A program made the position numbers and the translations under genes. A stretch of DNA of 22,184 nt from Candidatus Pacearchaeota archaeon (lineage in GTDB: Archaea > Nanobdellota > Nanobdellia > Pacearchaeales > GW2011-AR1): assembly GCA_016181885.1 (NCBI GenBank), contig JACOYJ010000031.1, positions 1-22,184 of the forward strand. The letters are read 5' to 3'. Under the pieces are notes generated by a model. It saw only the letters and a program-made list of their open reading frames with translations, was not told the DNA's origin and did no database searches. Of this stretch, positions 2,320 through 20,538 are shown one piece after another; within the stretch, counting starts at the first letter, position 1, and each line of letters starts with the position of its first letter.

Positions 2320-2340
2320 CAAAACCCCAGAAGATTTAAA

Positions 2341-3579: not shown

Positions 3580-3605
3580 TTTAAATTAATTGTCTTTTTT
3601 AAGGT

Positions 3606-4604: not shown

Positions 4605-4705
4605 TATTTGTCGAGGAAAGAGGGATTTATATTTATTATTAAGAAGAAATATATGTTGAAAAATAATGAATAAATGCTTAAATAATGGAAATTTTTATTT
4701 AAAAC

Positions 4706-5173
4706 ATGAAGCTTGATGATATTCTTAAAAACGGAGATATAAGGGTAAAGCTTTATGAAACAAGAGAAATCTGGTTTAATCTATATGATAATCATCCTAT
4801 AATGGGGTCGAGTTCTTATTCTTACGGCTCTGATACGATTCATAGGGTTTTTATAAGCCGTGCTAAAGCTATTTCAGAAGCTAAAGCTTTTGAGGACAAT
4901 TTAAGAAATAATGTGGAAAGCTTGGATAAGTTTGATAAAATGAGGGTTGCAGAACAGCATGGAGTTAATTGTAACGAGGATTATAGATTCAGGGTAGCTG
5001 TTTTTGAATACGACATTCCAATTAAAGATTTAGTTGAAAAAGACGGGGAAATATATTTTGCAAGGAGCCCTTTCTTGTTTTATATGCCCGAGAACATTTC
5101 TAATATTGACAACTCAATATTTAATAAAATCAAGTTTACACCAGCCTATGCAGTAGAGCATAAGATTGAATGA
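4706..5173 (+). CDS. Hypothetical protein (155 aa)
   Basis: Clean ORF in an otherwise unoccupied interval. I recognise no motif. Confidence 0.5.
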   Translation: MKLDDILKNGDIRVKLYETREIWFNLYDNHPIMGSSSYSYGSDTIHRVFISRAKAISEAKAFEDNLRNNVESLDKFDKMRVAEQHGVNCNEDYRFRVAVFEYDIPIKDLVEKDGEIYFARSPFLFYMPENISNIDNSIFNKIKFTPAYAVEHKIE

Positions 5174-5281
5174 TTTATTTAAATAATCAATTTGTTTGGC
5201 TAAGCTTGGATGAATAATCAAAAACATCTTATGCCTTTGAAACATAATAATTATTAAAAACGCTATTTTATTATCCTATTC

Positions 5282-5944
5282 ATGGCTTTTAGCATATCCC
5301 CAACAGATCTAAACCTAATGGAAGACTGCTCCAGATGCTTCTGGCTTGATAAACACCATATTTGGAATCGTTCCAGGGGGATATTTTCAAGCCTGCCTTC
5401 TGGCATGGACAAAATCATAAAAGCGCACTTTGATGTTTTTAGGAGGCGTGGTGAACTTCCGCCGGAATTGGCAAGGGAGCAGGCTTGCAGCGGAATGTTC
5501 CTGTTTAATGAAAACGATATATTAAAAAAATGGCAAAACAACTTTAATGGAATTTCTTATGTAGATCCGAAGGGAAATAGGTTTAGAGGCGCTGTTGATA
5601 ATCTGCTGGTTAATAGCGAAAATCTGGTAGTTTTAGATTATAAGACAAGGGGCTTTCCATTAAAATCGGATTCAGCAAGCTATTATCAGCTTCAGCTTGA
5701 TTCCTACAATTATTTGCTGAGAAAAAATGGGCGCAAAACAGAAAATTACTCATTCTTGCTATTTTATATTCCAAGCAGCGTTGACGAAGTGGGAAAGTTT
5801 ATCTTTAATACAACTTTGATAAAATTAGAGACCGATCCTAAAAGAGCTGAGAATAAGTGGGCAGAATCTTTGGTTTTGCTGAACAGCGCATGTCCTGAAA
5901 AAGAATGCGGCCATTGTGAGGGAAGAGGCAATAAATTAAAATGA
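5282..5944 (+). CDS. PD-(D/E)XK nuclease, Cas4-like, with a probable 4-Cys Fe-S cluster
   Basis: 220 aa. Has an N-terminal Cys motif EDCSRCFWL (compare CPR.aw in Cas4), an Asp in GAVDNLLV, a D-x-K in VVLDYKTRG, a QxxxY motif in YYQLQLDSYNYLL, and a C-terminal Cys triad CPEKECGHCEG. No CRISPR array or other cas gene lies in the window. Confidence 0.65.
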   Translation: MAFSISPTDLNLMEDCSRCFWLDKHHIWNRSRGIFSSLPSGMDKIIKAHFDVFRRRGELPPELAREQACSGMFLFNENDILKKWQNNFNGISYVDPKGNRFRGAVDNLLVNSENLVVLDYKTRGFPLKSDSASYYQLQLDSYNYLLRKNGRKTENYSFLLFYIPSSVDEVGKFIFNTTLIKLETDPKRAENKWAESLVLLNSACPEKECGHCEGRGNKLK

Positions 5945-6804
5945 AAAACCCGCAAAATTTTGTTTCAGTAAGCGGGGTATCTTCTATTGAACAGCTTGAG
6001 GAAATCGGGAATTTTTGCAGGCTTGAGAAATTTAATTCTCCAGTAGTTATTGGATATCAATTCTCAAACAAAAGCATAAATCAGGGAACTCATAATCCGA
6101 GGCAGCCAAGGATTAGTCATTTGAGGGAAATTACTGAAAAAACCTTGGATTACGGGCTAATTACAGCCTTTCATTATTATACGAAAGACAATTTAACTAT
6201 CGTGGGGGATTTGGAGAAGCTAGTGTCTTTAAGCGGCGCTAATCCGGAAAAAACACTTGTGCAGTTAAACACTCTTCCAGCAAATGTAAAAACATTGAAA
6301 CAGATTAAACAAATAGGATTTAAAACAATATTCAAAGTCGCTGTTTCAGATAAAAGTTCTGAAGGCTACGCTATTTGGAAAGGCCATGAAGTTCAGGATT
6401 TTCATTTTGGCGATATTTCTGCGTTAATTGGCCAGGTTTATGAAAGAAAAGCTTTTATTGATTATGTTCTTTTTGACCCAAGCCATGGCGTTGGTTTAGA
6501 TTTGAATTTGTCGCCGGGAAGTTTAGCCGTTAGGTTTGGAAAAGAGATATCTCAAAGATTTAAAAATTTAGGCTTAGTTTATGCGGGAGGAATCGGCCCA
6601 AATAATGCAGCAGAAACAATCACTTTCCTATTAAATTATTTCCCGCAGGGATTTAGCATTGACGCTGAAAGCGGGTTAAGGAATATTGTAAAAAACAACA
6701 GTGGAAAAACTTTGGATGAGCTAGACTTAAATTCTGTCAAAAAGTATCTTATGAGCGTGCATGATGGGTTAAAAATGCAGAGCAAATCTGCAGCCCAGAA
6801 ATAA
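5941..6804 (+). CDS. TIM-barrel protein distantly resembling phosphoribosylanthranilate isomerase (TrpF-like)
   Basis: 287 aa. The TrpF-like pattern runs FVSVSGVSSIEQLEEI (compare vKiCGit..ed), DYVLFDPSHGVGLDL (compare D..LlDs..GGtG..fdw), YAGGIGPNNAAETI (compare LAGGL.peNv.eAi) and GFSIDAESGL (compare GvDvsSGvE). It is larger than a canonical TrpF. The start overlaps the stop of the upstream nuclease gene (ATGA at 5941-5944). Confidence 0.5.
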   Translation: MKNPQNFVSVSGVSSIEQLEEIGNFCRLEKFNSPVVIGYQFSNKSINQGTHNPRQPRISHLREITEKTLDYGLITAFHYYTKDNLTIVGDLEKLVSLSGANPEKTLVQLNTLPANVKTLKQIKQIGFKTIFKVAVSDKSSEGYAIWKGHEVQDFHFGDISALIGQVYERKAFIDYVLFDPSHGVGLDLNLSPGSLAVRFGKEISQRFKNLGLVYAGGIGPNNAAETITFLLNYFPQGFSIDAESGLRNIVKNNSGKTLDELDLNSVKKYLMSVHDGLKMQSKSAAQK

Positions 6805-6900
6805 AAAACCTTCCGCTATTATCATTATCCCATTTATTTTTAATAGTTAATAGAAAATATATGAATGAAAGAATCAGTTAATTCTGTTCATTATCTGAAA

Positions 6901-6948
6901 ATCATTAAATGGATGAAACTATGAGCGTTAATTTATGAACTGGCTTAA
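6901..6948 (+). repeat. Partial third copy of the 3' end of the intergenic repeat
   Basis: atcattaaatggatgaaactatgagcgttaatttATGAACTGGCTTAA resembles the terminal aattaaatcatggaatgttgagacATGAACTGGCTTAA of copies A and B. The final 14-mer is identical. Confidence 0.55.
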
Positions 6949-6986
6949 AAAGAAAAAATTAAATACTTCCAAAACCTGTTAAATTA

Positions 6987-7217
6987 ATGAAAAAGGGGAA
7001 TGCCAGTTTTGGCGGTTTTATTGGGGGATTGGCCGGTTTTTTAGTGGGAATATTTATTCCAGTTGGCGGTGAGCTCAACGGCTCTTTCTTTACAAGAGTG
7101 ACTCAAAGGCTGATAGAAGCAGACACAACAGGATTTATTGTCTCGCTGATTTATGTAGTGATTGGAATATGCTTAGGGTACTCTATTGGCGCAGTTATCG
7201 CCCATTTTAAGAGCTAA
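6987..7217 (+). CDS. Small Gly-rich membrane protein (76 aa, two predicted TM segments)
   Basis: The hydrophobic stretches GGFIGGLAGFLVGIFIPVGG and FIVSLIYVVIGICLGYSIGAVIA suggest two TM segments. I cannot assign a family. Confidence 0.55.
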   Translation: MKKGNASFGGFIGGLAGFLVGIFIPVGGELNGSFFTRVTQRLIEADTTGFIVSLIYVVIGICLGYSIGAVIAHFKS

Positions 7218-7218
7218 A

Positions 7219-7353
7219 ATGAAATCTCCAAAAGTCGTTTTATTTTCAATGATTGCCCTTGGTTTTTTGGCCTTAACCTTTCTTGTCAGCTGGCTTTTTA
7301 TTATTGGCGCAGTTATTTTGGTGTTATTGAATCAGCGTGAATTGAATAAATAA
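7219..7353 (+). CDS. Small membrane protein (44 aa), below the ORF-track cutoff
   Basis: Own translation: MKSPKVVLFSMIALGFLALTFLVSWLFIIGAVILVLLNQRELNK. Its ATG lies 1 nt after the stop of the preceding gene (TAA-A-ATG at 7215-7221). It has two hydrophobic segments. Confidence 0.45.
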   Translation: MKSPKVVLFSMIALGFLALTFLVSWLFIIGAVILVLLNQRELNK

Positions 7354-7356
7354 CTA

Positions 7357-7728
7357 TAAAGTAAACCAGCAATCTTGACATAAAAATTACTCACTCATGT
7401 CATCGTGCATTTTATTATTAACATTAATGGCAAATCTGCGAATGAAATGAGCAGTTACGGCAAAGGACATTAATATTCCCGCAAAATGCAATCCATGAAC
7501 AATAGATTATTAAACTAATAATTGCATCTTATTCTAAATAAAATAACGGCGTCTAACATAATGGATTTTTATTAATATTCAATTTTTAGTTTTATTTGAT
7601 AATTAAGGTAAATGTTTATCTAAGGAAAATTGTTTCATCTTGCAACTTTATACTCTTCCATTAAACTCCCTGCGATAATAATGATTAAGGAATTAAATCA
7701 TGGAATGTTGAGACATGAACTGGCTTAA
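7357..7728 (+). repeat. Intergenic direct repeat, copy B (about 372 nt)
   Basis: See copy A. It has the same orientation and the same conserved ends. Its terminal ATGAACTGGCTTAA opens a 22-codon mini-ORF (7715-7783) that stops 6 nt before the ATG of the 7790 gene. Confidence 0.8.
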
Positions 7729-7789
7729 TAAACCGAAAAGCCTTAAAAGGCATTTGTTTCTTATAGCTTTGAAAGAGGCTTAATTAAAA

Positions 7790-9277
7790 ATGACCGGCGA
7801 AAATATAGATGAAGACAAGGAATTTGATGAAGGTTTTGAAACATCCATCGAGCCCGGAGTGAAATCAAAGCTGCTTTTGCTTGATGAGTTTGATGAGTCA
7901 AAGGTTGCGCAAGAGTTTAGAGATTTTTTTGCGTCACTTCATCCAGAAGAAAAAGAAGCCAGGCTTTACGTTTATACTCCCGCGCACGTCGGTTCTTTGA
8001 ATTCGATGGGTCTTTTCGGAGACTTCTCACCATCTGTAATCTATTCTTCAAATAAGCATAATGAAACTCATCTGCCATTCAGAGAAAAAAACTTAAGGGA
8101 GTTCGGCTACAGCAAATTATGTCATTTATATTGCACTTTAGACAAGTCAATTATGTTCGGATTTTTTAACAGGCACATGGCTAAGAGCAAGGTTTTTAAT
8201 TTGAATTCTGCAGCTACAATACTCCATCGGCCAGACCTAGTTCTTGACGCCAAGCCTTTAGAAGATAAAGAAATTTCTCCAGAAGAAGTTGTTAATATTT
8301 TATTTGCAGTCAAGAAAAATGCAACAAAGCTTTTAAGGGAAGTCCAGACAGAATATTCAAGAACTTATGATTCTCTGGAAGAGAGCCACTCATTTAAATA
8401 TCCGAAAGCTCTTGAAGAATTGCTTGGCGATAATTTGTCAAGGATACTTCTTTACGGCTCGAGCGCAAGAGGAGATGGAAATGATTATGATAATCTTGTT
8501 GCAATAAAGAGCTTGCCGGATGATTTTTACACTAAAATTCGCGGAGTAAAACCAAATGAAAATGGAAAAGATGTCGGCATAATTTTTGTGCCTGAAAATG
8601 TTCTCGACAAATTTTTATATATCAACGTTAGCAACAGCATTTTTAATGAGCATTCAAAGCCGTTAAAAGGCGATTTTCATTTCCCTATCGAATCGGAGAG
8701 ATATAAGATTTGGAAGGAAATGTATCATGCCGGATTCGGCTCCGCAAAATTAATTTCAGGAATGAATTTGGTTTTTAGGGAGCCGGAAATTTTATTTGAT
8801 AAAGAGGGTCTTTTTGAGTATTTTATGAAGCTTAATAGATTTACTCTGCATGGATTAATGCAGGGAGGCGGAAGAGTAATGCCGTCAAAAGAAGAGCTTT
8901 TGGATATTTTGAAAGACGATTTCGATTATCCTATTCCAGAATTTAGGCCTGATGCTTCTTATCTGCAGGAATCTTTCTTAAAGGCGAACAAAGCGAGCGT
9001 CGCAATATCAAAAAAGATGTATTCTTCTGAACTTGCGCGCGAACCCAACGAGCACCTTTTGGTTTTAGAATCAAGGCGAAGCGGAAAAATTTTTACTTCA
9101 TCATATCGCGGAAAAAAAGTCTATGTTTTTGGAGGAAGAGAAAAAATGAGAAAAGGAGATGTTGTTCCAGCAAGGCTTTTAGTTTCAGGCGAAGAAGGGT
9201 ATTATTCAAGAAAAAACGAGCTTCATCATAGGGGAATAGATTCCTCAGATGATTTTTATATTGGGAGAAGATTGTAG
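7790..9277 (+). CDS. Multidomain protein with a central minimal nucleotidyltransferase (Pol-beta/MNT-type) core
   Basis: 495 aa. RILLYGSSARGDGNDYDNLVAI matches the hGSxARGxxxxxxDxD signature of MNT/KNTase-type nucleotidyltransferases. A further acidic strand follows at DVGIIFV. The acidic N-terminal region of about 210 aa and the C-terminal region of about 90 aa (KKVYVFGGREKMRKGDVVPARLLV) are unrecognised. Confidence 0.6.
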   Translation: MTGENIDEDKEFDEGFETSIEPGVKSKLLLLDEFDESKVAQEFRDFFASLHPEEKEARLYVYTPAHVGSLNSMGLFGDFSPSVIYSSNKHNETHLPFREKNLREFGYSKLCHLYCTLDKSIMFGFFNRHMAKSKVFNLNSAATILHRPDLVLDAKPLEDKEISPEEVVNILFAVKKNATKLLREVQTEYSRTYDSLEESHSFKYPKALEELLGDNLSRILLYGSSARGDGNDYDNLVAIKSLPDDFYTKIRGVKPNENGKDVGIIFVPENVLDKFLYINVSNSIFNEHSKPLKGDFHFPIESERYKIWKEMYHAGFGSAKLISGMNLVFREPEILFDKEGLFEYFMKLNRFTLHGLMQGGGRVMPSKEELLDILKDDFDYPIPEFRPDASYLQESFLKANKASVAISKKMYSSELAREPNEHLLVLESRRSGKIFTSSYRGKKVYVFGGREKMRKGDVVPARLLVSGEEGYYSRKNELHHRGIDSSDDFYIGRRL

Positions 9278-9489
9278 GTTTTTATTATTTTAGAATTATT
9301 TTCATTTATGTTTTTCCATATCCGAGTTTTTTCTCGTTAATCGTGTATTAATTGCTCCAAACCAAACTTCGTCAAGGTTCTCCGCATAAAACCATATTAA
9401 CTTGGATACGCTTTGATTAGCTTATGTTAAACTTGTTTGTATTAACATCACAAAAACATTTATAAAACATGAATTGCATTTTATATAAA

Positions 9490-9924
9490 ATGAAAACAGC
9501 TTACGTCTTTTTGGGCATTTTAGTTCTTGCTCTTGCTTTAGGCTTGGTTTTCTTGGCGGGCGGAGATGAAAAAAATCCAGGAAGCATAAATGGAGGAGTG
9601 GTTTCCGAAGATAGCAATTCTGAAAATGGAAATGTTGTGACCTTTGAAGTTTCCGGAAAAAATTTCAGATTTTTTAGGGATAATCTTGAAAGCCCGGAGC
9701 TCAAAGTAAAACAAGGCGATAGAGTAAGAATCGTTTTTACTAATGAAGAGGGTTTCCACGATTTTGTTATTGATGAATTTGCTGGAGCCAGAACAAAGCA
9801 GATTCCCGCAGGCAGTTCAGAAACAATCGAGTTTGCTGCAGACAAAGCAGGAACCTTTGAGTATTACTGCAGCGTTGGAAAGCACAGGGCTAACGGCATG
9901 TTTGGAAAATTAATCGTTGAGTAA
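9490..9924 (+). CDS. Membrane-anchored cupredoxin (type 1 blue-copper domain)
   Basis: Signal-anchor MKTAYVFLGILVLALALGLVFLAG. Copper ligands are His in EGFHDFVID and Cys/His/Met in YYCSVGKHRANGM. The track start at 9469 is in frame. I prefer 9490 because the TATA box TTTATAAAA at 9459-9467 is centred about 27 nt upstream of it, which fits a leaderless mRNA. Confidence 0.8.
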   Translation: MKTAYVFLGILVLALALGLVFLAGGDEKNPGSINGGVVSEDSNSENGNVVTFEVSGKNFRFFRDNLESPELKVKQGDRVRIVFTNEEGFHDFVIDEFAGARTKQIPAGSSETIEFAADKAGTFEYYCSVGKHRANGMFGKLIVE

Positions 9925-9942
9925 AAAGAACCAAGTTCAACG
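9915..9942 (+). terminator. Hairpin spanning the cupredoxin stop codon
   Basis: cgttgag (9915-9921) pairs with ttcaacg (9936-9942): 6 Watson-Crick pairs plus one G:U, with a 14-nt A-rich loop. Its function is uncertain. Confidence 0.25.
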
Positions 9943-10037
9943 CAATCCGCTTCCACTCGCTCCATTTACGAGGTGCGCGCCTGTCCTTCGGGCAATTTGT
10001 CAAAATCAAAGATTTTGAAATTATAATTTTCCACCCC

Positions 10038-10051
10038 AAAGAGACTCGCTT
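10038..10051 (+). promoter_or_regulatory. Shared 14-mer AAAGAGACTCGCTT upstream of the yhhQ TATA box
   Basis: An exact inverted copy lies at 11363-11376 upstream of the convergent 182-aa gene. Here it ends 43 nt before the ATG and about 13 nt upstream of the TATA box TTTTTATA (10064-10071). Confidence 0.35.
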
Positions 10052-10093
10052 AAATAATATAACTTTTTATACCTGTTATTCTTACCTTTAATC

Positions 10094-10774
10094 ATGGTAG
10101 AAAAAAGAGAATCTCTAAAATATTTTAGTATAATTTCTACTTTCTTTGTCGCTACAATCATGATTTCGAACACTGTCGCAACAAAACTTTTTAGTTTAGG
10201 TCCTTTAATCTTTACGGGAGGAATTTTAATTTTTCCAATAGCTTATATTTTTGGAGATATACTTACTGAAGTCTATGGTTATGCTCGTTCAAGAAAAATT
10301 ATTTGGACTGGTTTTATTGCTTTAATTTTTATGTCTTTGATTTATTGGCTTGTTGGCTTATTGCCTCCTGCTCCAGCATGGCCAAATCAAGAGGCATATG
10401 TCGCTGTTTTAGGTTTAGTGCCGAGAATTGTTTTAGCTTCAATTATTGGATATTGGGCAGGTTCATTTTCTAATTCTTTTGTTATGGCAAAAATGAAACT
10501 GTGGACCAAAGGTAAACATCTTTGGATAAGAACAATTGGTTCAACAATTGTTGGCGAGGGAGTAGATACAGCTATTTTTGTCTTAATAGCTTTCTGGGGA
10601 ATTGTTTCAGGAGGAATTTTAATTTTAGTAATAATTTCAGGTTATGCTTTCAAAGTTGCATACGAAATAATTGCAACACCAATAACCTATAAAATAGTGG
10701 GATTTTTGAAAAAAGCAGAAGGAATAGATGTTTATGATACAAATACAAAGTTTAGCCCATTTAATTTAAACTAA
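10094..10774 (+). CDS. yhhQ: Queuosine-precursor transporter, YhhQ/DUF165 (VUT) family
   Basis: 226 aa polytopic membrane protein. The block FPIAYIFGDILTEVYGYARSRKIIWTGF is characteristic of the family. Confidence 0.85.
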   Translation: MVEKRESLKYFSIISTFFVATIMISNTVATKLFSLGPLIFTGGILIFPIAYIFGDILTEVYGYARSRKIIWTGFIALIFMSLIYWLVGLLPPAPAWPNQEAYVAVLGLVPRIVLASIIGYWAGSFSNSFVMAKMKLWTKGKHLWIRTIGSTIVGEGVDTAIFVLIAFWGIVSGGILILVIISGYAFKVAYEIIATPITYKIVGFLKKAEGIDVYDTNTKFSPFNLN

Positions 10775-11314
10775 ATCCAATCTATAAACTCCAAATACAA
10801 TTTGGTTTTTTCCAGTAATTTCTTTTAACAATCTTGCTCCTTGATTAGTGACAGATCTTATAGAAGTTTCGTTTTTCCAAGGGAGGTGAGGAATAACACC
10901 TTGAATAGATTGATTTCCTTCAGAATTTTCTTTTAATCTTTCAAACAATCTACAAGCATAAGCTCCTCCAATAAATGTTTTTGGTTTTCTTACTGCTAAT
11001 TGGTCTATATAAATAAAATCTTCTCGTTGTTTTACGAAATAATTGAAGACCGCATCATCTCTTAATTGAGGTTCTTGTTCTATTAATTGTTTCACAAAAT
11101 CAGAATCATAAGCCATACAAAAACCCCCTAATTCTGAATCACCACAACCAACAAAAAATAAATCACTTTCACTTCTTTTTCTATATTGTTCTTCACTTAA
11201 AGAATAGTCATAAAATCCGAATTTTTTATCTGCGTCTTTTGAAGTTACAACTAATGAATCTGCCAATTTCTTAATTTGAGAAATATCCTTTGTTTGAACT
11301 TTTCTTATTTCCAT
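10766..11314 (-). CDS. Hypothetical protein, weakly GNAT-acetyltransferase-like
   Basis: 182 aa. FIYIDQLAVRKPKTFIGGAYACRLFERL loosely resembles GNAT motif A. The 3' end overlaps yhhQ by 9 nt (convergent genes). The TATA-like TTTTAAAAAATA (plus-strand 11334-11345) is centred about 26 nt upstream of the ATG. Confidence 0.4.
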   Translation of the reverse strand: MEIRKVQTKDISQIKKLADSLVVTSKDADKKFGFYDYSLSEEQYRKRSESDLFFVGCGDSELGGFCMAYDSDFVKQLIEQEPQLRDDAVFNYFVKQREDFIYIDQLAVRKPKTFIGGAYACRLFERLKENSEGNQSIQGVIPHLPWKNETSIRSVTNQGARLLKEITGKNQIVFGVYRLDLV

Positions 11315-11362
11315 ATTAAAAAGGTTTCTTTGGTATTTTTTAAAACTTGCTCTTTTGAAGTA

Positions 11363-11376
11363 AAGCGAGTCTCTTT
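11363..11376 (-). promoter_or_regulatory. Inverted copy of the 14-mer AAAGAGACTCGCTT
   Basis: The plus strand reads aagcgagtctcttt. On the minus strand it ends 49 nt upstream of the ATG at 11314 and just upstream of that gene's TATA box. Confidence 0.35.
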
Positions 11377-11387
11377 TCCACTCCTAT

Positions 11388-11410
11388 CTTCTTTTTTAGA
11401 AAAAAAGAAG
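11388..11410 (-). terminator. Perfect 10-bp hairpin with an oligo-T run
   Basis: cttctttttt-aga-aaaaaagaag. The T6 run reads the same on either strand. It lies downstream of the 11686-12039 gene, which is consistent with an archaeal oligo-T terminator. Confidence 0.35.
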
Positions 11411-11685
11411 CAAAAAATGGCGCGCATCTTAAATTTTATAGGATAACTAAAAGCCTACCTGAACAAAGAGAGATTTTAGAAATATTATTACGGAGAATTA
11501 GAAACTTGCTCTGTTTAATTTCGCACCCCATCTGCCTTCTCGCTTACGCTCTAATCGTTGAACAGGCAGTTCTTCTTATGACATCTCCTTTATTTGTTAT
11601 TTCTTATTTTTTTCTTATTCGTAACCATTAAAAACACCAAAAGATTATACTCTTCATGAAGGTGAAAATAACTAAAGATTCCATT

Positions 11686-12039
11686 TTAATTTATTTTTCC
11701 TAAACCATATATTATTTTATAATCCATTCCAGAAGCTTCATTAAGTTCAGGAACTATCCTTTCAACATCTTGTCTCAGTGAAGAATCAGAAATAAAAATT
11801 ATGCCATTATTAATATCCACAACTTTTTTTCTAAACATTCCAAATAGTCCAATGCTTTTAACAAGTGAAACATAACGTCCCCCCAGTCCATATTCTCCCA
11901 GATACATTATATCACTCTTTAAATCTCTTGAATGATTCGCTTCTATTAACTTTTTTGCAAGATGTTCGCTAATAACAAAGTCGGCATCAGAACCCTCAAA
12001 CCTTCCATTTCTTATATCATCTAAACTTTCCATAGTCAT
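11686..12039 (-). CDS. Hypothetical protein (117 aa)
   Basis: Clean ORF. I recognise no motif. Confidence 0.5.
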   Translation of the reverse strand: MTMESLDDIRNGRFEGSDADFVISEHLAKKLIEANHSRDLKSDIMYLGEYGLGGRYVSLVKSIGLFGMFRKKVVDINNGIIFISDSSLRQDVERIVPELNEASGMDYKIIYGLGKIN

Positions 12040-12092
12040 TCATAAAAACAAGTAATTTATAAAGATTTCCGTGATTTTATTATAGTAAATAA

Positions 12093-12524
12093 TCACTCAA
12101 CAATTATTTCGCCTTTCATATATTCATGCAGCTTGCAGTGATAAGCGTAAGTGCCGGGATTGTTAAATGTGTGTGAATACATCTGAGCCTTAGAAAGAAG
12201 GACTGAATTTAGTTCGCTCCCGGAATCAGAAGTAACTGAGTGCTGGATTCCTTCTGTATTCTGCCATGTTACAATGTCTCCAACCTTGACTCTCAGAGTT
12301 GTAGGTTTGTAGGAAAAGTCTTTGATTAGGACAGTATATTCAACTCCGCCTCCAGAGCTTGAACTGCTGGAGCTAGAACTTGATGAGCCAGAGCTTGAAC
12401 TTGAGCCAAGGTTATCTCCAGGAAGAACTTCATTTTTTCCAGGAAAAAAAAGCATTAATGCAACCGTGACAATTGCGAGAGTAATTACTCCGGCCAACAA
12501 TACATTTTTCATTCTGCTTTTCAT
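12093..12524 (-). CDS. Membrane-anchored cupredoxin with a poly-Ser linker
   Basis: Signal-anchor MKNVLLAGVITLAIVTVALMLFF, then the linker SSSSSGSSSSSSSSSSSGGG. The copper ligands His (GIQHSV) and Cys/His/Met (YHCKLHEYM, C-x2-H-x2-M) match the amicyanin/pseudoazurin type. Confidence 0.8.
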   Translation of the reverse strand: MKSRMKNVLLAGVITLAIVTVALMLFFPGKNEVLPGDNLGSSSSSGSSSSSSSSSSSGGGVEYTVLIKDFSYKPTTLRVKVGDIVTWQNTEGIQHSVTSDSGSELNSVLLSKAQMYSHTFNNPGTYAYHCKLHEYMKGEIIVE

Positions 12525-12660
12525 TTTAATTTAAGGCTAATGTCCTATAAAAATCTTGGGGTTTTCGACCAAACCACTTAAAAATAGTTATAAATGTTTA
12601 AATACTTATTTTCTATTTGACTTACGCAAAATACAACTGCTAGTAAGTTATAGTGGATTA

Positions 12661-12680
12661 ACATACAACAGGTTGTATGT
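12661..12680. promoter_or_regulatory. Perfect 9+2+9 palindrome ACATACAAC-AG-GTTGTATGT upstream of nrdR-nrdJ
   Basis: The arms are exact reverse complements. It sits in the divergent intergenic region directly abutting the tandem repeats. It is a candidate operator and does not fit the 16-bp NrdR-box consensus well. Confidence 0.3.
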
Positions 12681-12681
12681 A

Positions 12682-12880
12682 TTACGGGATAAAGATTTTC
12701 CTCAGAGGCAAAGAAAGAAAATTGCTTGAGGGATTCTAAAAACCGTAGGTCTTTACGGGATAAAGATTTTCCTCAGAGGCCGAGGTTATTGGGAAGCGAG
12801 AAGAGTTGTTTATATATAACGACTTCACAATGGCCGAGCAGAAAAGAAGTTGCTTGAGGGAATCTTAAAACCGTAGGTTT
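12682..12880 (+). repeat. Two degenerate tandem copies of the nrdR 5' coding segment (units 12682-12752 and 12753-12880)
   Basis: The 28-mer ttacgggataaagattttcctcagaggc occurs exactly twice (12682-12709 and 12753-12780). The unit tails ttgcttgaggga.tct.aaaaccgtaggt also recur (12722-12750 and 12850-12878). Both parts align with the in-frame sequence directly upstream of and into nrdR (12881-12965: acgggattaaaacttctctcggaggc...gcttgaagtgcaaaaaacgctttac). Unit 2 carries a 54-nt or so insert containing TTTATATATAA (12809-12819). Confidence 0.7.
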
Positions 12881-12941
12881 AACGGGATTAAAACTTCTCT
12901 CGGAGGCAAAAAAAAGAAGTTTAAGGAGGAGGCGGGAATGC

Positions 12942-13292
12942 TTGAAGTGCAAAAAACGCTTTACAACATATGAGAAAGTTGAAAAGCAGGAATTTTGGAT
13001 TATAAAAAAAGATGACCGGCGTGAAAAGTTTCAGCGGGAAAAACTTGAGAAGGGGATACATTTGGCTTTTGAAAAAAGGCCTGTAGCAAAAGAAAAGATT
13101 GACAAAATGATAAACGAAATAGAAGAACAGCTTAGAAAAACAGGAAAAAGAGAATTGAAGAGCTCAGTAATTGGAGAAATTGTTATGAAAAAAATGAAAA
13201 AAATTGACAATGTAGCTTACATAAGGTTCGCTTCAGTATACCGCGATTTCAAGGACATAAATGATTTCAAGAAGGAAATGAGGGAGCTGTAA
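12942..13292 (+). CDS. nrdR: NrdR-family protein reduced to an ATP-cone; the first half of the zinc ribbon is missing
   Basis: 116 aa from a TTG start. (L)KCKKRFTTYEKVE matches the second CxxC and the RFTTxE block of NrdR. IIKKDDRREKFQREKLEKGIHLAF and VAYIRFASVYRDFKD are the ATP-cone. The in-frame upstream sequence reads GNLKTVGLTGLKLLSEAKKRSLRRRREC after a TGA at 12855-12857, with no Met and no first CxxC. AAGGAGGAGG (12923-12932) lies 9 nt before the TTG. Confidence 0.7.
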   Translation: MKCKKRFTTYEKVEKQEFWIIKKDDRREKFQREKLEKGIHLAFEKRPVAKEKIDKMINEIEEQLRKTGKRELKSSVIGEIVMKKMKKIDNVAYIRFASVYRDFKDINDFKKEMREL

Positions 13293-13293
13293 A

Positions 13294-16200
13294 ATGCCGG
13301 AAGAATTTTTAGACTATAAAACCGCTTTGGGAATGCGCATAGAGTTGTCAAAATACGCCAGGGATAATATGAATATCAGTTCTAATGCAAGATTTGTTTT
13401 TGAAAATGTTTATATGAGGAGCTTGGAGAACGGAGAAAGAGAAGATGTTTCCGACAGAATGGCTGCAATTGCCGTCGATATTGCAAGTGCAGAGATGAAA
13501 TACCTCCCAAAGGATATGCCTTATGAAAAAAAAATTGAGGCAGTTAAAGATAGAGCATTAAAGAATCTTGAGCTTTATGTTTCAAATGATTTTAGAGCTA
13601 ATACTCCGACGAATTTGAACATGGGAAGATGGGTTGCTAAATACAATGAAGACGGAGATCTTGCTGGGAGATATAGTCAGGCAAAACAGCTCGGCTCTGC
13701 TTGTTTTGTTATTCCCATTGAGGACACGTTTGGCCGCGATGTCTCGAATCTTGAAGATGGAATTCTTGAAGCATGGGTGACTCAGCAGTTAGTTCACAAG
13801 GGCGGCGGAGGGACTGGTTTTTCTTTTCAAAGACTAAGGCCAAAAGGCTCTATAATAGGATATAATCCAGCTGTCGATGGAATGCATTCAATTTCCTGGG
13901 ATGGAAGAAGGGGGGTTTCTTCAGGATTCGAATCTTTTTTAGAATCTTATTATAATGCATCTACAGAAGCGGTTAAGCAGGGAAACAGCAGACGGGGGGC
14001 AAACATGGGAATTCAGAGAATAGATCACATGGATTTTTTAGATCATATGTTTGCAAAATTTGGCAGGGACGTTGAAAGATCTGAGTGGAGGATAAAGAAT
14101 TTCAATTTGAGCCTTGCAGTTACAGATGAATTCATGGAGGCTGCTGAAAAAGGGCACACCTACACTCTTTTTAATCCACACAGGGCCAGACCAGAAATAA
14201 AAAGAGTTTTGGAAAAAAAGTTTGGAATTGAAAATCCTGAAGTGGTGAGGAAACAAGACATCGCAACTAGAGAACAATTTGAGTCAATAATAAATAGAAA
14301 TAGCGAAAACTTGTTTGCACCATTGACGACGCCAAATATGTATTTAGATGATGACGGAACAACAGTGATTAATGCTTATACCGGGGATGCGATTGGAACA
14401 GTTGTCGATGATATTGTAAGAATAGAAACTAGAAAAGTTCTGGGTTTATTTGCAAAGTTATCTCACTCCAACGGCGAGCCGGGGATGATTTTTATAGACA
14501 GAATAAATGAGAATAACGCCGTTCTTTTTGACAGGGAGATAGAATCAACAAATCCTTGCGGTGAGCAGCCCCTGCCCCCATATGCTGCCTGCAATCTAGC
14601 ATCAATAAATGTTGGGAATTTCGCAAGATACGGGGTATTTGATTCAGAAAATAAAATAAACCTTGAAAAAAAAGTAATTGACAATAAATTTACTAAAATT
14701 GAGAAAAGGAAAGACGGGAAAATAGGAGTAATGTATTATGACTGGGATACTCTAAGAGAGAGGGTCAACGAAGGGGTTAGATTCTTGGATAATGTCGTTG
14801 ATAGAAGTGATTTCCCGGCAGATAAAGTGAATAAAGCTGTTTCAGAATTGAGAAATATAGGGCTTGGTTATATGGGTGTTTGGGATGCTATGGTTTTGCT
14901 GAAGATGAGATATGGCTCTGGAGAATCTTATGAATTTGCTGAAGAGTTGGCGAAGGTTTTGCACGATGACAGTTTAGTCGCTTCTAAAAAACTCGCAGAA
15001 GAAAGAGGAGAATTTCCATTATGGAAAAAAAGTGCGCACAATCCGGATTCAGATCTTTATCAATGGATTACTTCAAATCCGAGAGCGATTCCAGATAGAT
15101 TCAGGGGAGGAAGAAGATTAAGCGACATTGTTGACAGAGAAAATGGAATGAGGTGGGGGGAGGGAAAAGTAAGAAACGTTGCAAGAATTACTCAAGCGCC
15201 GACAGGCACAATAAGAAGAAGTGCGGGGCATAAAGATGAAAAGCTGAATTTGGATAATTTAGCAATATCGTCGGGAATAGAGCCTATTTTTTCAATCATC
15301 GAACAATCAAATATTTTAAATGCAAAAATAGAAGATTGGAGCAGTGCTGCAGTAAAAATTTTAGAAAGAGAAGGGCTTGATGTCAAGGAAATCATGGAGG
15401 CTATAAGAAAAAATAAGGGAAGCGTTTCTATTTATGGATACACAGGCCAGGAAGTTGCAAAAACTCTGGAGAAAATTCCGGAAAATGTCAGGAATGTGTT
15501 GGTGACTGCTGCGGGGGGGGAGGGCAATTATTATGAAATAACTCCGGAACAGCACGCAAGAATGTTGATAGCTTTTCAAAAATACAATGATAGCGCTACA
15601 AGCAAAACAATAAACCTGCCGGAATCAGCAACCCCGGAGGATATTAGGGAAGCTTGGATGAATCTTTGGAAGCTTGGAGCTAAAGGCGGAACAATTTATA
15701 GGGATGCAAGCAGAAGTTTCCAGATATTGAACAGAATCGAGCTATCGAAGCCAGAAGGACGCTCAAAAATAAGGCGGCCTTTAGTGCAAAACGCGATTGC
15801 ATTCGAATTTCCATACTTGTCCTCAAACCCAAGGCAGGGAATTGGCGATGAGGATTTTGATCCAGACAGGTGTTTTACAACCATAACTTATAATCCAGTT
15901 AACAAAGGAGTCACGGGAATTTTTCAGAACATTTCAGATGTTGACGCAGAGAGAATTTCTTTGTTAACAGACTTGAATAGGGACAAGTCAAGGGCATTTA
16001 AACAGGGAAGAAGTATAGACGAAGTAATTGAAGACCTTGAAAAAATAAACATTGGCGGAAACATAACTGGAATTGTCGTTGATGAAGCAGTTATGCCTGA
16101 AGGAAGCAAGGAAAGGAAGAGATTTGAAGTAAGAGGCTCGACGACGAGAGAAGCAGCGCTTAACTCATTGTATGTTATGAAGTTCTTGACAGATGGCGGA

Positions 16201-16401
16201 AAAAGCTTCAACCCAGATTTCATGAAGGAAAGGCTTGATGCCTATTATCTTGGAAAAATAACTTTAAAGACGATAGTAAACACCAAAGGAAAAGTAAAAC
16301 TCGAAGAAGATGCTGGCGGAAGGCCTTCCATCCTCAGCAATGGCAAAGTTGTGAAGCTTCCGGATGAGATTTCCGGAATTGATTGTCCGGAATGCATGTA
16401 A
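13294..16401 (+). CDS. nrdJ: Class II (adenosylcobalamin-dependent) ribonucleotide reductase
   Basis: 1035 aa. Contains GGGGTGFSFQRLRP, RRGANMG, the active-site block NPCGEQPLPPYAACNLASIN, APTGT...SSGIEPIF, SKTINLP, GGTIYRDASR and a C-terminal CPEC pair. There is no N-terminal ATP-cone. The ATG lies 1 nt after the nrdR stop (TAA-A-ATG), and a GAGGGAG Shine-Dalgarno sequence lies upstream. Confidence 0.9.
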   Translation: MPEEFLDYKTALGMRIELSKYARDNMNISSNARFVFENVYMRSLENGEREDVSDRMAAIAVDIASAEMKYLPKDMPYEKKIEAVKDRALKNLELYVSNDFRANTPTNLNMGRWVAKYNEDGDLAGRYSQAKQLGSACFVIPIEDTFGRDVSNLEDGILEAWVTQQLVHKGGGGTGFSFQRLRPKGSIIGYNPAVDGMHSISWDGRRGVSSGFESFLESYYNASTEAVKQGNSRRGANMGIQRIDHMDFLDHMFAKFGRDVERSEWRIKNFNLSLAVTDEFMEAAEKGHTYTLFNPHRARPEIKRVLEKKFGIENPEVVRKQDIATREQFESIINRNSENLFAPLTTPNMYLDDDGTTVINAYTGDAIGTVVDDIVRIETRKVLGLFAKLSHSNGEPGMIFIDRINENNAVLFDREIESTNPCGEQPLPPYAACNLASINVGNFARYGVFDSENKINLEKKVIDNKFTKIEKRKDGKIGVMYYDWDTLRERVNEGVRFLDNVVDRSDFPADKVNKAVSELRNIGLGYMGVWDAMVLLKMRYGSGESYEFAEELAKVLHDDSLVASKKLAEERGEFPLWKKSAHNPDSDLYQWITSNPRAIPDRFRGGRRLSDIVDRENGMRWGEGKVRNVARITQAPTGTIRRSAGHKDEKLNLDNLAISSGIEPIFSIIEQSNILNAKIEDWSSAAVKILEREGLDVKEIMEAIRKNKGSVSIYGYTGQEVAKTLEKIPENVRNVLVTAAGGEGNYYEITPEQHARMLIAFQKYNDSATSKTINLPESATPEDIREAWMNLWKLGAKGGTIYRDASRSFQILNRIELSKPEGRSKIRRPLVQNAIAFEFPYLSSNPRQGIGDEDFDPDRCFTTITYNPVNKGVTGIFQNISDVDAERISLLTDLNRDKSRAFKQGRSIDEVIEDLEKINIGGNITGIVVDEAVMPEGSKERKRFEVRGSTTREAALNSLYVMKFLTDGGKSFNPDFMKERLDAYYLGKITLKTIVNTKGKVKLEEDAGGRPSILSNGKVVKLPDEISGIDCPECM

Positions 16402-17796: not shown

Positions 17797-18423
17797 TTAT
17801 GAGTTAGAAGTTAAACCAGTAAACCTATCTTTACTGGATTTTTTTCCCAACCCAAGCCCAGAAATTTCTCCAGACTGGATGGTGTTCCTGATGAATTTTC
17901 CGACATAAGGTCTGGCGGCTTCAAGGACTTTGTCCCACGCGGATTCCAAAGCAGTCAATCTTTCTTGATATCTTGTCTCAAGAACAGCAATATTACTTTC
18001 GCATTTTCCATCTGGAGTTGCGCATCTTATGCAATGCTCCCTCCAATTATTTAATGGAGCAAGATCATCTTTTTCTCTTAACAGGTTAACTACTTTTTCT
18101 AATCCCTCAATTACTGGACCAATTTCTGGCTGAGCTATTTTTAACATCCCTAATAGTGGCGCAGGATCATCAACTCCAAATTCTTTTAGAACTTCAGTAT
18201 AAACAACTTCAAGAGGTTTTGATACAAAATTGTTTCCAGCTCTCATTAATGTCTCATAACTTCTCATGCAATCCACCGCCCTCATTCTATATTCTTCTCG
18301 GCCAGTGGTTTGATGCAATCTGCAATAATCAATAACTGCTCTTAGGCTAGGCTGTCTTTCTTTTATGGAATTTGACAATTGTTGAAGCCCATCTTTGATC
18401 TGACTAAAATCTACGTTTACCAT
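17797..18423 (-). CDS. Hypothetical protein (208 aa from the ATG; the track uses TTG at 18435)
   Basis: Clean ORF. The ATG at 18423 sits in a TAAAATG context. I recognise no motif. Confidence 0.55.
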   Translation of the reverse strand: MVNVDFSQIKDGLQQLSNSIKERQPSLRAVIDYCRLHQTTGREEYRMRAVDCMRSYETLMRAGNNFVSKPLEVVYTEVLKEFGVDDPAPLLGMLKIAQPEIGPVIEGLEKVVNLLREKDDLAPLNNWREHCIRCATPDGKCESNIAVLETRYQERLTALESAWDKVLEAARPYVGKFIRNTIQSGEISGLGLGKKSSKDRFTGLTSNS

Positions 18424-18845
18424 TTTATTTCCCAATAATTATTATTTATAAGCTTTATGGTGATTAAATGACTAATTGCTTCGCTAAAACAAAATTCTGA
18501 TAATAAGAAAAATATTTTAAAGTTTGGTTAATATAAACAAGCTGAACAATAAGAACTAAAGTTAATATAAGAAAAATTAATGTTAAAACAAATTAATAGG
18601 AATAAGATTTTAATGTGGGGCAGATAGAACAAGATAATTCAGGTATGTCCGGGTTATCATAAATTATTTTTTAGGCTAGATTAATTTTAAAGAGAATTAA
18701 TATAAATAAGACGAGTTCAAGTCAATTCAAATTAATCAGAAAAATAATTTTTGGGTTGGATTAATATTATCTTGAAGTTGGGTTATTATTAAGAATACAC
18801 CTCTAAATCACGACAGAATTAGTTAGTCGTTGCCTCTGCAATTAT

Positions 18846-19016
18846 TCATCTTCTCTTCTTTTTCTTTCCGAAGAGCGAGAATCCCTTTGTTTTTTTCTTG
18901 CCCTTTCCAGATTTAGCAAGCTTCATTAACTTTGCAACTTTTGACTTTTTGCCCTTTTTGCTTGGGCCTCTTCCACCTTTCTTAGATTTCTTCACACTCT
19001 TTTTTCTCTTTGCCAT
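18846..19016 (-). CDS. Possible 56-aa polybasic (Lys-rich) protein, below the ORF-track cutoff
   Basis: Own translation: MAKRKKSVKKSKKGGRGPSKKGKKSKVAKLMKLAKSGKGKKKTKGFSLFGKKKKRR, with a TGA stop at 18848-18846. About half the residues are Lys or Arg. The frame is purine-rich, so it could be open by composition alone. It follows the micro-ORF chain with an 11-nt gap. Confidence 0.4.
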   Translation of the reverse strand: MAKRKKSVKKSKKGGRGPSKKGKKSKVAKLMKLAKSGKGKKKTKGFSLFGKKKKRR

Positions 19017-19027
19017 GTTACTATAAA

Positions 19028-19213
19028 TTAATTATCTCCGCCTGGTTCATAAGGGTCCATTTTATTAATCTCCTATTCCGCCACCAATTTTAATCTTCAT
19101 CTTCCATTTTTACTAATTTACGGATCCCCAAAGCTCATTTTAACCTGCACCACCATCGTCTCCCATTTTAAAATCCATTTGGTTGCATTTTACTATCCTG
19201 ATCCGCCGCCCAT
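19028..19213 (-). repeat. Array of 7 micro-ORFs / CCATTTTA repeats
   Basis: Minus-strand units: MGGGSG (19213-19193), MQPNGF (19188-19168), MGDDGGAG (19166-19140), MSFGDP (19138-19118), MEDED (19107-19090), an ATT-initiated unit IGGGIGD (19088-19065), and MDPYEPGGDN (19060-19028). The junctions read TAA-A-ATG or a close variant. On the plus strand the motif C(C/A)ATTTT(A) recurs 7-8 times. Confidence 0.6.
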
Positions 19214-19231
19214 TTTCTTTTCTTGAATATT

Positions 19232-19456
19232 GCTGACATATGGACTCGGTGAAGAAAGTGCCTTAAGCATCATCGAATCTAACTTAACCCGCCGATGTAC
19301 TTTAAAGGTTATCTTCTTCGCGCCATAAAACAAAGCTTAACAAGTGTGGATTTCGCGTGAAGAGTTATAGTCCAGTCTCCACGTTAATGGCCGAGCACTT
19401 GACAGAGGCTCATATGGACACACCCTTTTCAGAGCAACCGATCTGTCCTAGTCAGC
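19232..19456 (-). ncRNA. Unclassified structured RNA (about 225 nt)
   Basis: Visibly more GC-rich than its flanks, inside an 1120-nt interval with no ORF of 60 aa or more. Closing helices: GCUGAC (19456-19451) with GUCAGC (19237-19232), GGAC (19448-19445) with GUCC (19245-19242), and UCGGU (19441-19437) with ACCGA (19250-19246). A GNRA hairpin CUCU-GAAA-AGGG lies at 19434-19423. An 8-bp hairpin pairs CGUGGAGA (19383-19376) with UCUUCACG (19363-19356). UUAAGC (19340-19335) pairs with GCUUAA (19268-19263). G:U pairs in two of the helices would become C-A mismatches on the plus strand, so I assign the minus strand. Confidence 0.55.
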
Positions 19457-19479
19457 GTTGAATTATCAGAATATATTCC

Positions 19480-19488
19480 TATATAAAA
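19480..19488 (-). promoter_or_regulatory. Archaeal-type TATA box TTTTATATA
   Basis: The plus strand reads tatataaaa. Its centre lies about 28 nt upstream of the first base of the closing helix of the RNA (19456). Confidence 0.45.
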
Positions 19489-19555
19489 CTATTGTACTCC
19501 TTAAAAGTTAATACATTTTTATCGTAAATAATCTTTAAAAAAATCTAGGCGAGTT

Positions 19556-19816
19556 TTAAAATCGTTTTAAATAAAATGGAAGGGGAAAATATTGCATAAT
19601 TGTCTTATGCTTATCCAACACCGATTGCGGTTCATTTGAGCCGCCGTGTGCATAACCTCTACTAAAACTATCAGATTCTATTTTGCGCAGACAAACTCTA
19701 TTTTTCTCTCTTTGAAAAATATCACGAGAAACTTTAGCCCCATCAATCTTATAGTTAATAGTCCATCCTAATTCATCTCTTCCCTCGAGCATCTCTAATG
19801 TTCTCTTTAATTTCAT
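19556..19816 (-). CDS. Hypothetical protein (86 aa)
   Basis: ORF divergent from the dph6-like gene. I recognise no motif. Confidence 0.45.
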   Translation of the reverse strand: MKLKRTLEMLEGRDELGWTINYKIDGAKVSRDIFQREKNRVCLRKIESDSFSRGYAHGGSNEPQSVLDKHKTIMQYFPLPFYLKRF

Positions 19817-19869: not shown

Positions 19870-20538
19870 ATGAAACTCGGCGTATTATTTTCTGGAGGAA
19901 AGGATTCCTGCTATTCGGCGTATATTGCCAAAAAGCAGGGGAACGAATTGGCTTGCTTGATCACTATTCATTCAGAGAACAAAAATTCTTACATGTTTCA
20001 CACGCCTTCAATAAAGAAAACTGAGGCTCAGGCAAAAGTCATGGGGATTCCTTTAATGGTGTTTAAGACAAAAGGTGAAAAAGAAAAAGAATTGAAAGAT
20101 TTAGAAAAGGCGATAAAAGAAGCGATAAAAAAATACAAAATTGAAGGAGTTATAAGCGGGGCAATTGCATCGAGATATCAATATGACAGGATAGGAAAAA
20201 TATGCGAAAAATTGAAGATAGAATCATTCACTCCTATTTGGCAGAATGACGAACTAGAATATCTTAATGAATTAATAAAAAATAAATTTAAAATAATAAT
20301 TACAGGAGTTGCCGCTTATCCTTTGGATGAAAAGTGGCTTGGAAAAGAAATAAACAGGGATTTTGTTGATAAAGCAGTTGATTTGAATAATAAGCATAAA
20401 ATTCATATTGCAGGAGAGGGTGGAGAGTTTGAGACTTTTGTTCTTGACTGTCCTTTATTTAAGAAGCCATTAAAAGTTAAAAAAAGCAAAATCACAGGAG
20501 AAAAAAACAGCTGGAGGCTTGAAATAGATGTGGAATGA
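19870..20538 (+). CDS. dph6: Diphthine-ammonia ligase / MJ0570-family PP-loop ATPase
   Basis: 222 aa. Has the PP-loop LFSGGKDS at the N-terminus. GAIASRYQYDRIGKICEKLKIESFTPIW and GEGGEFETFVLDCPLF are characteristic of the family. TATA-like CATTTATAT lies about 22-25 nt upstream of the ATG. Confidence 0.78.
   Translation: MKLGVLFSGGKDSCYSAYIAKKQGNELACLITIHSENKNSYMFHTPSIKKTEAQAKVMGIPLMVFKTKGEKEKELKDLEKAIKEAIKKYKIEGVISGAIASRYQYDRIGKICEKLKIESFTPIWQNDELEYLNELIKNKFKIIITGVAAYPLDEKWLGKEINRDFVDKAVDLNNKHKIHIAGEGGEFETFVLDCPLFKKPLKVKKSKITGEKNSWRLEIDVE

Follow-up and report, generated by a model that had tools for sequence, protein, structure and literature searches.

Structured RNAs that lie beside a gene, or that are joined with the protein encoded there, have been described in several forms. 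The autoregulatory leaders (bacterial L1, L10, L20 and S15, the archaeal L1 operon and the K-turn in the 5' untranslated region (UTR) of L7Ae) combine a structured 5' RNA with a small basic protein. RNase P RNA with C5, and the omega-RNA of IscB/IsrB and the bridge RNA of IS110, both encoded in the 5' UTR that precedes their partner protein, are large structured RNAs that have a protein partner, and the bacterial raiA, OLE, ROOL, GOLLD and HEARO RNAs are G+C-rich intergenic islands of more than 200 nucleotides (nt) with many helices, pseudoknots and strong covariation. The GIR1 lariat-capping ribozyme, finally, is about 190 nt long and lies directly 5' of the open reading frame (ORF) whose mRNA 5' end it makes. 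Here we report on a 22,184-nt stretch of DNA from a Candidatus Pacearchaeota archaeon (contig JACOYJ010000031.1), below called the window, that carries on its minus strand at 19232-19456 a structured RNA of 225 nt, in which a closing stem leads to a four-way junction that bears three more arms. The RNA belongs to a family that had not been catalogued before, 221-228 nt in length and found in Pacearchaeota/Nanoarchaeia (DPANN archaea), for which no earlier description was found in literature searches. As far as sequence and predicted fold allow a judgement, the RNA belongs to none of the known systems compared here; it appears closest in behaviour to the autoregulatory leaders and to ribonucleoproteins (RNPs) of an RNA and a basic cofactor, and closest in appearance to the large orphan noncoding RNAs.

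The initial annotation of the window had proposed a minus-strand, multi-helix RNA of about 225 nt at this place, driven by a TATA box and richer in G+C than its surroundings. Homologues on ten contigs and the covariation among them uphold such an RNA, the sequence and the named helices are found where they had been placed, and the G+C content is indeed 45.8% at 19232-19456, as against 22.2% and 24.4% in the flanking spacers (19457-19555 and 18436-18845) and 35.4% in the whole window. The first homologue was traced through the 212-amino-acid (aa) ORF at 17797-18435 (minus strand), for which a 55%-identical protein is encoded on the 1.2-kb contig L020. At the start of this contig stand the last 90 nt of the RNA (its 3' part), which share 93% identity with the window where the two align; 10 nt later a lysine-rich ORF follows, which is a homologue of the window gene at 18846-19016. 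A profile made from these two microproteins led to four more proteins, and every contig that was fetched (L030, L031, L033, L034, L035, L039, L041 and L043) has the RNA directly 5' of the microprotein gene. Together with the window and L020 these are ten distinct contigs with covariance-model matches of 173-244 bits (232-244 bits for the RNA of the window), eight members being full-length and two partial. Labelled members of the microprotein family come from Candidatus Pacearchaeota and Candidatus Nanoarchaeia. The eight full-length RNAs are 66-80% identical (mean 72%) and share 88 invariant columns, which cluster in loops and junctions. There is one RNA copy per module and none elsewhere in a covariance-model search of about 375 kb of DPANN loci.

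Other routes to homologues gave nothing. Synteny around Dph6 led to 17 GTDB loci (best 77% aa identity) with no common neighbours and no RNA homologue by nhmmer, blastn or covariance models, and the Logan contigs that carry the 86-aa ORF next to the RNA are identical to the window and offer no variation. A 19-nt loop pattern had a single chance match in a scan of metagenome DNA, on the G+C-rich bacterial contig L029. Five scans of viral contigs with conserved RNA patterns gave chance matches or none, and none was upheld by nhmmer or the covariance model. The idea of a template and variable repeat of a diversity-generating retroelement was dropped, as a second copy of the region is not present in the window.

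Among the checks suggested for the RNA were covariation among homologues and folding energy compared with shuffled sequences. With the full-length and partial sequences aligned to the covariance model, a fitting that in itself favours the structure, 93.7% of the pair cells are paired and compensatory double changes occur in 35 of the 68 pairs, a number reached in none of 500 column shuffles. In controls with the partners slid by 1-3 columns, 36-43% of the cells are paired and 6-8 pairs are compensatory. RNAalifold, run on a plain MAFFT alignment of four sequences, returned the same 68 pairs, 19 of them compensatory, and L031 and L041, when folded independently, gave the same architecture as the window, members being about 70% identical. 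The folding check came out in the expected direction, but only modestly. RNAfold predicts a closed multi-helix fold for the minus strand of the window with a minimum free energy (MFE) of -67.5 kcal/mol, for which the folding z-score is -2.39 (3 of 200 shuffles were as stable) compared to -2.11 for the plus strand; the evidence from folding a single sequence is thus suggestive rather than strong. Invariant G:U pairs, the promoter and the gene downstream, which has the same orientation, confirm the assignment to the minus strand.

According to the aligned sequences the RNA is built from a closing stem (P1a, P1b and P2), a four-way junction, the GNRA hairpin P3 and the two arms A and B. In P1a the 5' strand GCUGAC (19451-19456) pairs with the 3' strand GUCAGC (19232-19237), all six pairs show compensatory changes, and the variants GCCGAC/GUCGGC and CUUUAC/GUAAAG are found among the members. 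P2 (UCGGU at 19437-19441 with ACCGA at 19246-19250) is 100% paired, with a change from G:C to A:U in two members, and so is P3 (19422-19435), a hairpin of five base pairs (bp) with a GNRA tetraloop (GCUCU-GAAA-AGGGU) whose loop reads GAAA in six members and GGAA in two. Arm A (19321-19421) is a long irregular hairpin of about 100 nt with four helical segments (helices 5-8) and 16 compensatory pairs; it has two conserved internal loops, AGCCUCUGU / UUAAGCUU and GCYAUUAA / CGAAAYCY. Within it lies the hairpin PA4 (19357-19383), with the stem CGUGGAGA/UCUUCACG and the invariant loop GGACUAUAACU, the stem being replaced in other members by CGUGGAG/CUUCACG, UAUGGUG/CGCCAUA and UACGGCG/CGCUGUA. Arm B (19251-19319), a hairpin of about 70 nt with a conserved apical loop RGGUUAAG, has a closing stem GAAGAAG/CUUUCUUC, which reads GUAGGAG/CUCUUGC in L031, and 11 compensatory pairs (helices 9 and 10).

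Four helices that had been drawn from the window alone, namely the terminal helix, UCGGU/ACCGA, the GNRA hairpin and the 8-bp hairpin that is now PA4, are hence supported by covariation, and all of them are part of the MFE fold of the window. Two others fared less well. The GGAC/GUCC extension, now P1b (5' strand GGAC at 19445-19448, an alternative partner of the invariant 3' GUCC), is present in the MFE fold, but it is the weakest helix, with zero compensatory changes and its 5' GGAC missing in L030 and L043. A long-range helix UUAAGC/GCUUAA can be formed in the window sequence, but its 3' arm changes to GUUUAA, GCUCAA and GUUCAA without compensation, and local pairings in two separate arms replace it. 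A bulge-helix-bulge motif at the closing stem, of the kind used for splicing or circularisation, was rejected because the bulges do not lie on the sides required.

When further pairings were sought, two candidate pseudoknots came up, both mediated by loops and both likely. In PK1 (YGGAC/GUCCR) the loop strand UGGAC (19370-19374) would pair with the 3' tail GUCCA (19241-19245), which contains part of the invariant GAGUCC and can pair either here or in P1b. Five members have U:A as the outer pair and three have C:G (L030, L041 and L043, the last read by eye because of an alignment gap), and the other four pairs are invariant. In PK2 (AAYCY/RGGUU) the strand AAUCC (19348-19352), within CGAAAYCY, would pair with GGGUU in the loop of arm B (19286-19290), the last pair being C:G in two members and U:A in seven. 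All cells of both are paired (100%). Two GGAC elements, the 5' strand of P1b and the hairpin loop of PK1, compete for one invariant 3' GUCC. A switch had already been suggested from two copies of GUCCAUAUG; the duplicate is present in the window (repeat D18), but the first copy is not conserved. A tertiary pairing of CCUCUGU with the loop of arm B was rejected, being broken in L039. A kissing pair UAACU/GGUUA is possible but invariant, and it competes with PK2.

The sole conserved neighbour of the RNA is the gene for a lysine-rich microprotein of 56 aa (18846-19016, minus strand) with the motif GRGPSKKGKKSKV.KL.KLAKSGK. A homologue follows on the same strand 3' of the RNA in 10/10 loci (44-68 aa as called), and in an exhaustive HMMER search no fewer than 33 clusters (50% identity) came up, each of them with GR.PS.K.K.SKV+KLI+LAKSGK. 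Because synonymous codon differences are seen between loci, the ORF is clearly protein-coding, as read from these sequences. The protein consists of lysine and arginine to about 40-50%, and in its AlphaFold model (mean predicted local distance difference test score 69) residues 26-36 form the sole helix while the rest of the chain is disordered. No match was obtained in Pfam, NCBIfam, PDB sequences, PHROGs or PADLOC, nor by a profile search against PDB chains at E<=10, including the chains of solved ribosome structures. In six more protein clusters (P0014, P0015, P0016, P0020, P0031 and P0032) the N-termini as called are translations of the 3' part of the RNA. These spurious N-termini, such as FKELFSPSPYVS and ALLHRVL, lie in two different frames and are annotation artefacts that conceal the RNA.

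All neighbours other than the microprotein gene differ from locus to locus (PCNA/Cdc6, SMC/RNase HII, primase, prismane, AMP-binding and others). The gene that comes next in L039, L041 and L043 is oriented convergently, so that here the unit is limited to the RNA and the ORF.

The promoter-driven transcription proposed for the RNA agrees with the family. In the window a TATA-like box, TTTTATATA (19480-19488, minus strand), is centred 28 nt 5' of the first paired base (19456), and such boxes are found about 27 nt (about -22 to -36) before P1a in 8/8 full-length members, with a purine-rich stretch resembling the TFIIB recognition element 5' of the box in some of them; the box would act as a promoter. 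Between P1a and the start codon (ATG) of the microprotein lie 7-25 nt in 8/10 members; L034 has 51 nt here and the window 215 nt. Seven of the eight short-spacer members have no Shine-Dalgarno (SD) motif. No separate TATA-like box precedes the microprotein gene at the distance usual for such boxes, the spacers being too short for a separate promoter. Since the box keeps its distance from P1a and the spacers leave no room for another promoter, RNA and ORF are presumably co-transcribed, and the earlier suggestion that transcription runs on downstream of the RNA is probably right.

What lies immediately downstream in the window is a purine-rich spacer of 215 nt (19017-19231, minus strand; 67% A+G) with six 'aaaAUG' micro-ORFs (MGGGSG, MQPNGF, MGDDGGAG, MSFGDP, MEDED and MDPYEPGGDN), three junctions of which are UAAAAUG stop/start overlaps. 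The initial annotation had suggested that transcription runs on into this array. The RNA is tied instead to the lysine-rich gene at 18846-19016, which had not been linked to it there. Because the other nine modules, with spacers of 7-51 nt, lack the array (9/9), it is by this comparison a recent insertion limited to the lineage of the window and stands outside the conserved module.

In two members an oligo-T tract lies directly 3' of the RNA and before the ATG, T6 in L030 (1841-1850) and T5AT5 in L041 (9987-10000); the others have none. These tracts may be partial archaeal terminators that set the ratio of RNA to mRNA. In L034, which is richer in G+C, one more stable hairpin, CUCCGGC-AUAAA-GCCGGAG, separates the RNA from the start codon of the microprotein (134-184).

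As the RNA is always found directly 5' of the microprotein gene, the two probably work together. The reading we tentatively prefer, giving it slightly less than an even chance, is that RNA and microprotein are co-transcribed and that the peptide binds the RNA as a cofactor. The two would share a single transcript that has the RNA as its 5' part; the RNA would be the main product, and the microprotein, a dedicated basic cofactor, would bind it to form an RNP. That the RNA is itself a product is favoured by the oligo-T that follows it directly in L030 and L041, and the role of an RNA-binding cofactor fits the protein because it is so rich in lysine and arginine and disordered save for one helix. 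In most members an SD-less start codon lies 7-25 nt past the closing helix, although the genes of this organism otherwise appear to be leaderless, and folding of the RNA or binding of the protein could here also gate translation of the ORF, which would amount to feedback. The most likely moving part would be the competition for the invariant GUCC, in which the 5' GGAC of P1b and the GGAC in the PK1 loop are rivals, so that P1b and PK1 might act as a switch.

Several observations weigh against this reading. Binding of the microprotein to the RNA is deduced from conserved adjacency and protein composition only, and the microprotein matches no known RNA-binding family. The RNA members were ascertained through the protein, so that RNA copies without the gene would escape and the 10/10 association is biased that way. 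A direct steric effect on the start codon cannot be universal, given that the ORF begins 215 nt away in the window and 51 nt away in L034. Finally, the pseudoknots are judged from 8-10 sequences with one covarying pair each, and the covarying column of PK2 fits a local 2-bp pairing equally well, which leaves PK2 less certain than PK1.

Comparison with the known systems gives a mixed picture. The position of the RNA, in the 5' UTR of its putative partner gene, suits an autoregulatory leader in 10/10 loci, if the protein does bind it. Further likenesses are the start codon near the closing helix in most members and the pairing of one RNA family with one gene family. However, the present RNA is far larger and more intricate than such leaders (225 nt, a four-way junction, two candidate pseudoknots and 88 invariant positions), the microprotein matches no ribosomal protein in Pfam, NCBIfam or PDB, and the spacer reaches 215 nt. 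With RNase P RNA and C5, omega-RNA and bridge RNA it has in common that a large structured RNA is co-encoded with a presumed protein partner, and as in the RNase P type of RNP a basic protein could offset charge and make the fold more stable, the present RNA being probably co-transcribed with it. There is however no likeness in sequence or covariance models to any of the three, the partner here is a disordered peptide of 44-68 aa without a catalytic domain, and neither transposon ends nor nuclease genes are found near the RNA. The raiA group shares its size, its many helices, its pseudoknots, its covariation and its occurrence as a G+C-rich island between genes; raiA, moreover, was first taken for a cis-regulatory leader of its downstream gene, and the function of such an orphan RNA was not deducible from sequence. 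Those RNAs are bacterial, whereas the present one is archaeal (DPANN), has an unrelated fold and no match in Rfam, and is tied to one microprotein gene.

That the RNA fits no known family had been stated before, and the search of Rfam 15 (4227 covariance models) bears this out. There were no matches at the gathering score in the whole window, and at E<=10 nothing overlapped the RNA in the six loci searched (window 18800-19800, L020, L030, L031, L033 and L034). In these loci RNaseP_arch, RNaseP-T and Archaea_SRP had no match at E<=10, and neither CR-II/CR-III nor helix-8 motifs of the signal recognition particle (SRP) RNA occur in the RNA, the sole tetraloop hairpin of which, P3, has a 5-bp stem without internal loops. 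The only weak matches of small nucleolar type (E 0.86-8.6) lie outside the RNA, and the alignment has no conserved C/D (RUGAUGA, CUGA) or ACA boxes. Likenesses to RNase P, SRP, C/D, H/ACA, T-box, cobalamin, lysine and hairpin-ribozyme RNAs were all considered and are unsupported by Rfam models or topology.

An unlikely alternative to the cofactor reading is that the RNA processes itself, being a ribozyme or processing signal that cuts near its own 3' boundary and frees a stable RNA and a nearly leaderless microprotein mRNA. The complexity of the RNA, with its large size, two candidate pseudoknots, GNRA loop and 88 invariant positions, is ribozyme-like, an invariant GAGUCC stands at its 3' boundary, and the short spacers to the ATG are followed by SD-less starts in seven of eight cases. 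The setting also makes it attractive. Among about 20 ORF upstream regions inspected in the window, most genes are without an SD motif, and a TATA-like box precedes their ATG by about 25-30 nt (around -26; examples are 11686-12039, 12093-12524, 17797-18423 and 19870-20538), and because of this pattern leaderless mRNAs appear to be the rule in the window, which suggests that the mRNAs of this organism are predominantly leaderless. The microprotein gene with its long structured leader is an exception to that pattern. Even the shortest spacers (7-25 nt), on the other hand, exceed true leaderless 5' ends, and no Rfam model of a self-cleaving ribozyme or of GIR1 matches at E<=10. The likeness to GIR1 is one of position, as there is no group-I-like core in the present RNA. 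As for the hairpin ribozyme, the RNA has a four-way junction and an internal loop with GAAA and UAUUA strands, and the loop GCYAUUAA / CGAAAYC loosely recalls what we take to be loop B of that ribozyme. Loop A is absent, however: there is no AGAA/N-GUC internal loop and the GUC is paired in both models. In addition, the strands resembling loop B are permuted and lie about 20 bp from the junction, and no covariance model matches.

Distinctly improbable, in our view, is a riboswitch or ion sensor, in which a 5'-UTR aptamer for a cation, a polyamine or a lysine-related metabolite would alternate between P1b and PK1 and in this way control read-through into the microprotein gene or its translation. 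Its position in the 5' UTR, with the 3' strand of the closing P1 helix 7-25 nt from the start codon, would allow this, junction and loop nucleotides are strongly conserved, and the oligo-T tracts that immediately follow the RNA in two members (L030 and L041) could be attenuators. The mutually exclusive pairings of the invariant GUCC are compatible with a switch and are no evidence of a ligand. Riboswitch classes, however, normally precede varied genes of one pathway, whereas here a single gene family with no evident metabolic or transport function follows. Moreover, the spacer of 7-215 nt holds no conserved element that could serve as an expression platform, and no Rfam riboswitch family matches.

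Very improbable is a housekeeping RNA in disguise, that is, a diverged or reduced RNase P or SRP RNA, or a trans-acting RNA unrelated to the microprotein. One copy per locus in chromosomal housekeeping contexts would fit such an RNA. To our knowledge Nanoarchaeum equitans, of the same class, has no RNase P, which may be counted in favour of this reading. The order P1-P2-P3 of the 5' end and the long-range pairing GAAAYCY/RGGUUA superficially recall P1-P3 of RNase P RNA and the two strands of its P4 (GAAAGUCC / GGCUUA). The resemblance of PK2 to P4 ends at its topology, as its 5' strand lies inside arm A after PA4 and the pairing crosses the arm-A helix PA3 rather than nesting inside P2, where P4, formed by CR-I and CR-V, directly follows P3, and the RNase P and SRP covariance models find nothing in the six loci. 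According to a review, RNase P RNP proteins occur in all archaeal genomes examined, DPANN included (PMC6380272), which also argues against a disguised RNase P.

The weakest alternative, a chance G+C-rich spacer or decayed coding remnant without function, could point to a z-score of only -2.4, alike on both strands, and to ORFs of 28 and 46 aa that overlap the region, but it can practically be discarded given the 35 compensatory pairs, which refute chance, the stops in all frames, the gene-caller 'extensions' that run through the RNA in different frames across members, and the RNA's 66-80% identity where the neighbouring protein is only 55% identical.

The genes around the RNA in the window are archaeal housekeeping genes (thymidylate synthase, DHFR, a dCMP deaminase fusion, ribonucleotide reductase, Dph6 and a HAD hydrolase), and ARAGORN found no tRNA or tmRNA gene in the window. 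The RNA-microprotein module is flanked by two near-orphans. Upstream it is adjoined by the 86-aa ORF (19556-19816, minus strand), annotated at NCBI as HYT23_04200 of a Candidatus Pacearchaeota metagenome-assembled genome, an ORFan for which no homologous cluster beyond its own was found among 5.8 billion clusters. On the other side the 212-aa ORF (17797-18435) has only two homologous clusters (55% identity) in the same set. Between this ORF and the microprotein gene lies a spacer of 410 nt with 24% G+C (18436-18845), which contains imperfect direct repeats of 36-45 nt spaced by about 93-104 nt (families D1 and D2). Part of the 3' end of this spacer (TTTAGCGAAGCA...TAATCACCATAAA) is kept in L020 and L023 and resembles the promoter region of the 212-aa gene.

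Genes for DNA replication or deoxynucleotide (dNTP) synthesis are found near the module at several loci: PCNA and Cdc6 in L035, SMC, RNase HII, PolB and FEN1 in L041, primase in L043, gyrase A in L039, and the ribonucleotide reductase, ThyA, DHFR and dCMP deaminase genes of the window (437-16401). Genes of the diphthamide pathway adjoin it twice, Dph6 in the window (19870-20538) and a gene at 9433-9726 in L039. Both kinds of neighbourhood could be due to chance in small genomes.

It is possible, if doubtful, that the family represents a new archaeal class of RNP or ribozyme, formed by a double-pseudoknotted RNA of about 225 nt and a lysine-rich cofactor and kept as a single-copy housekeeping unit in Pacearchaeota/Nanoarchaeia with genomes of about 0.6 Mb. 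In that case it would be a new class of large functional RNA and not a gene-specific leader, and the RNA may be catalytic, releasing its own leaderless mRNA or acting on another cellular RNA. We know of few large new RNAs with strong covariation, and of almost none from DPANN archaea, whose genomes are minimal and which are uncultivated. An RNA of 225 nt and a peptide of about 50 aa would also be a compact system that can be synthesized, for work on RNA-peptide recognition and on ribozyme or riboswitch chemistry. The family further raises the question by what means an internal ORF without an SD motif comes to be translated when the organism otherwise apparently uses leaderless mRNAs. That the RNA and the microprotein were retained while other genes diverged or were rearranged, the neighbouring protein being 55% identical, would point to an important function in these archaea, one that annotation has missed and that gene callers have hidden by translating the RNA as spurious N-terminal extensions.

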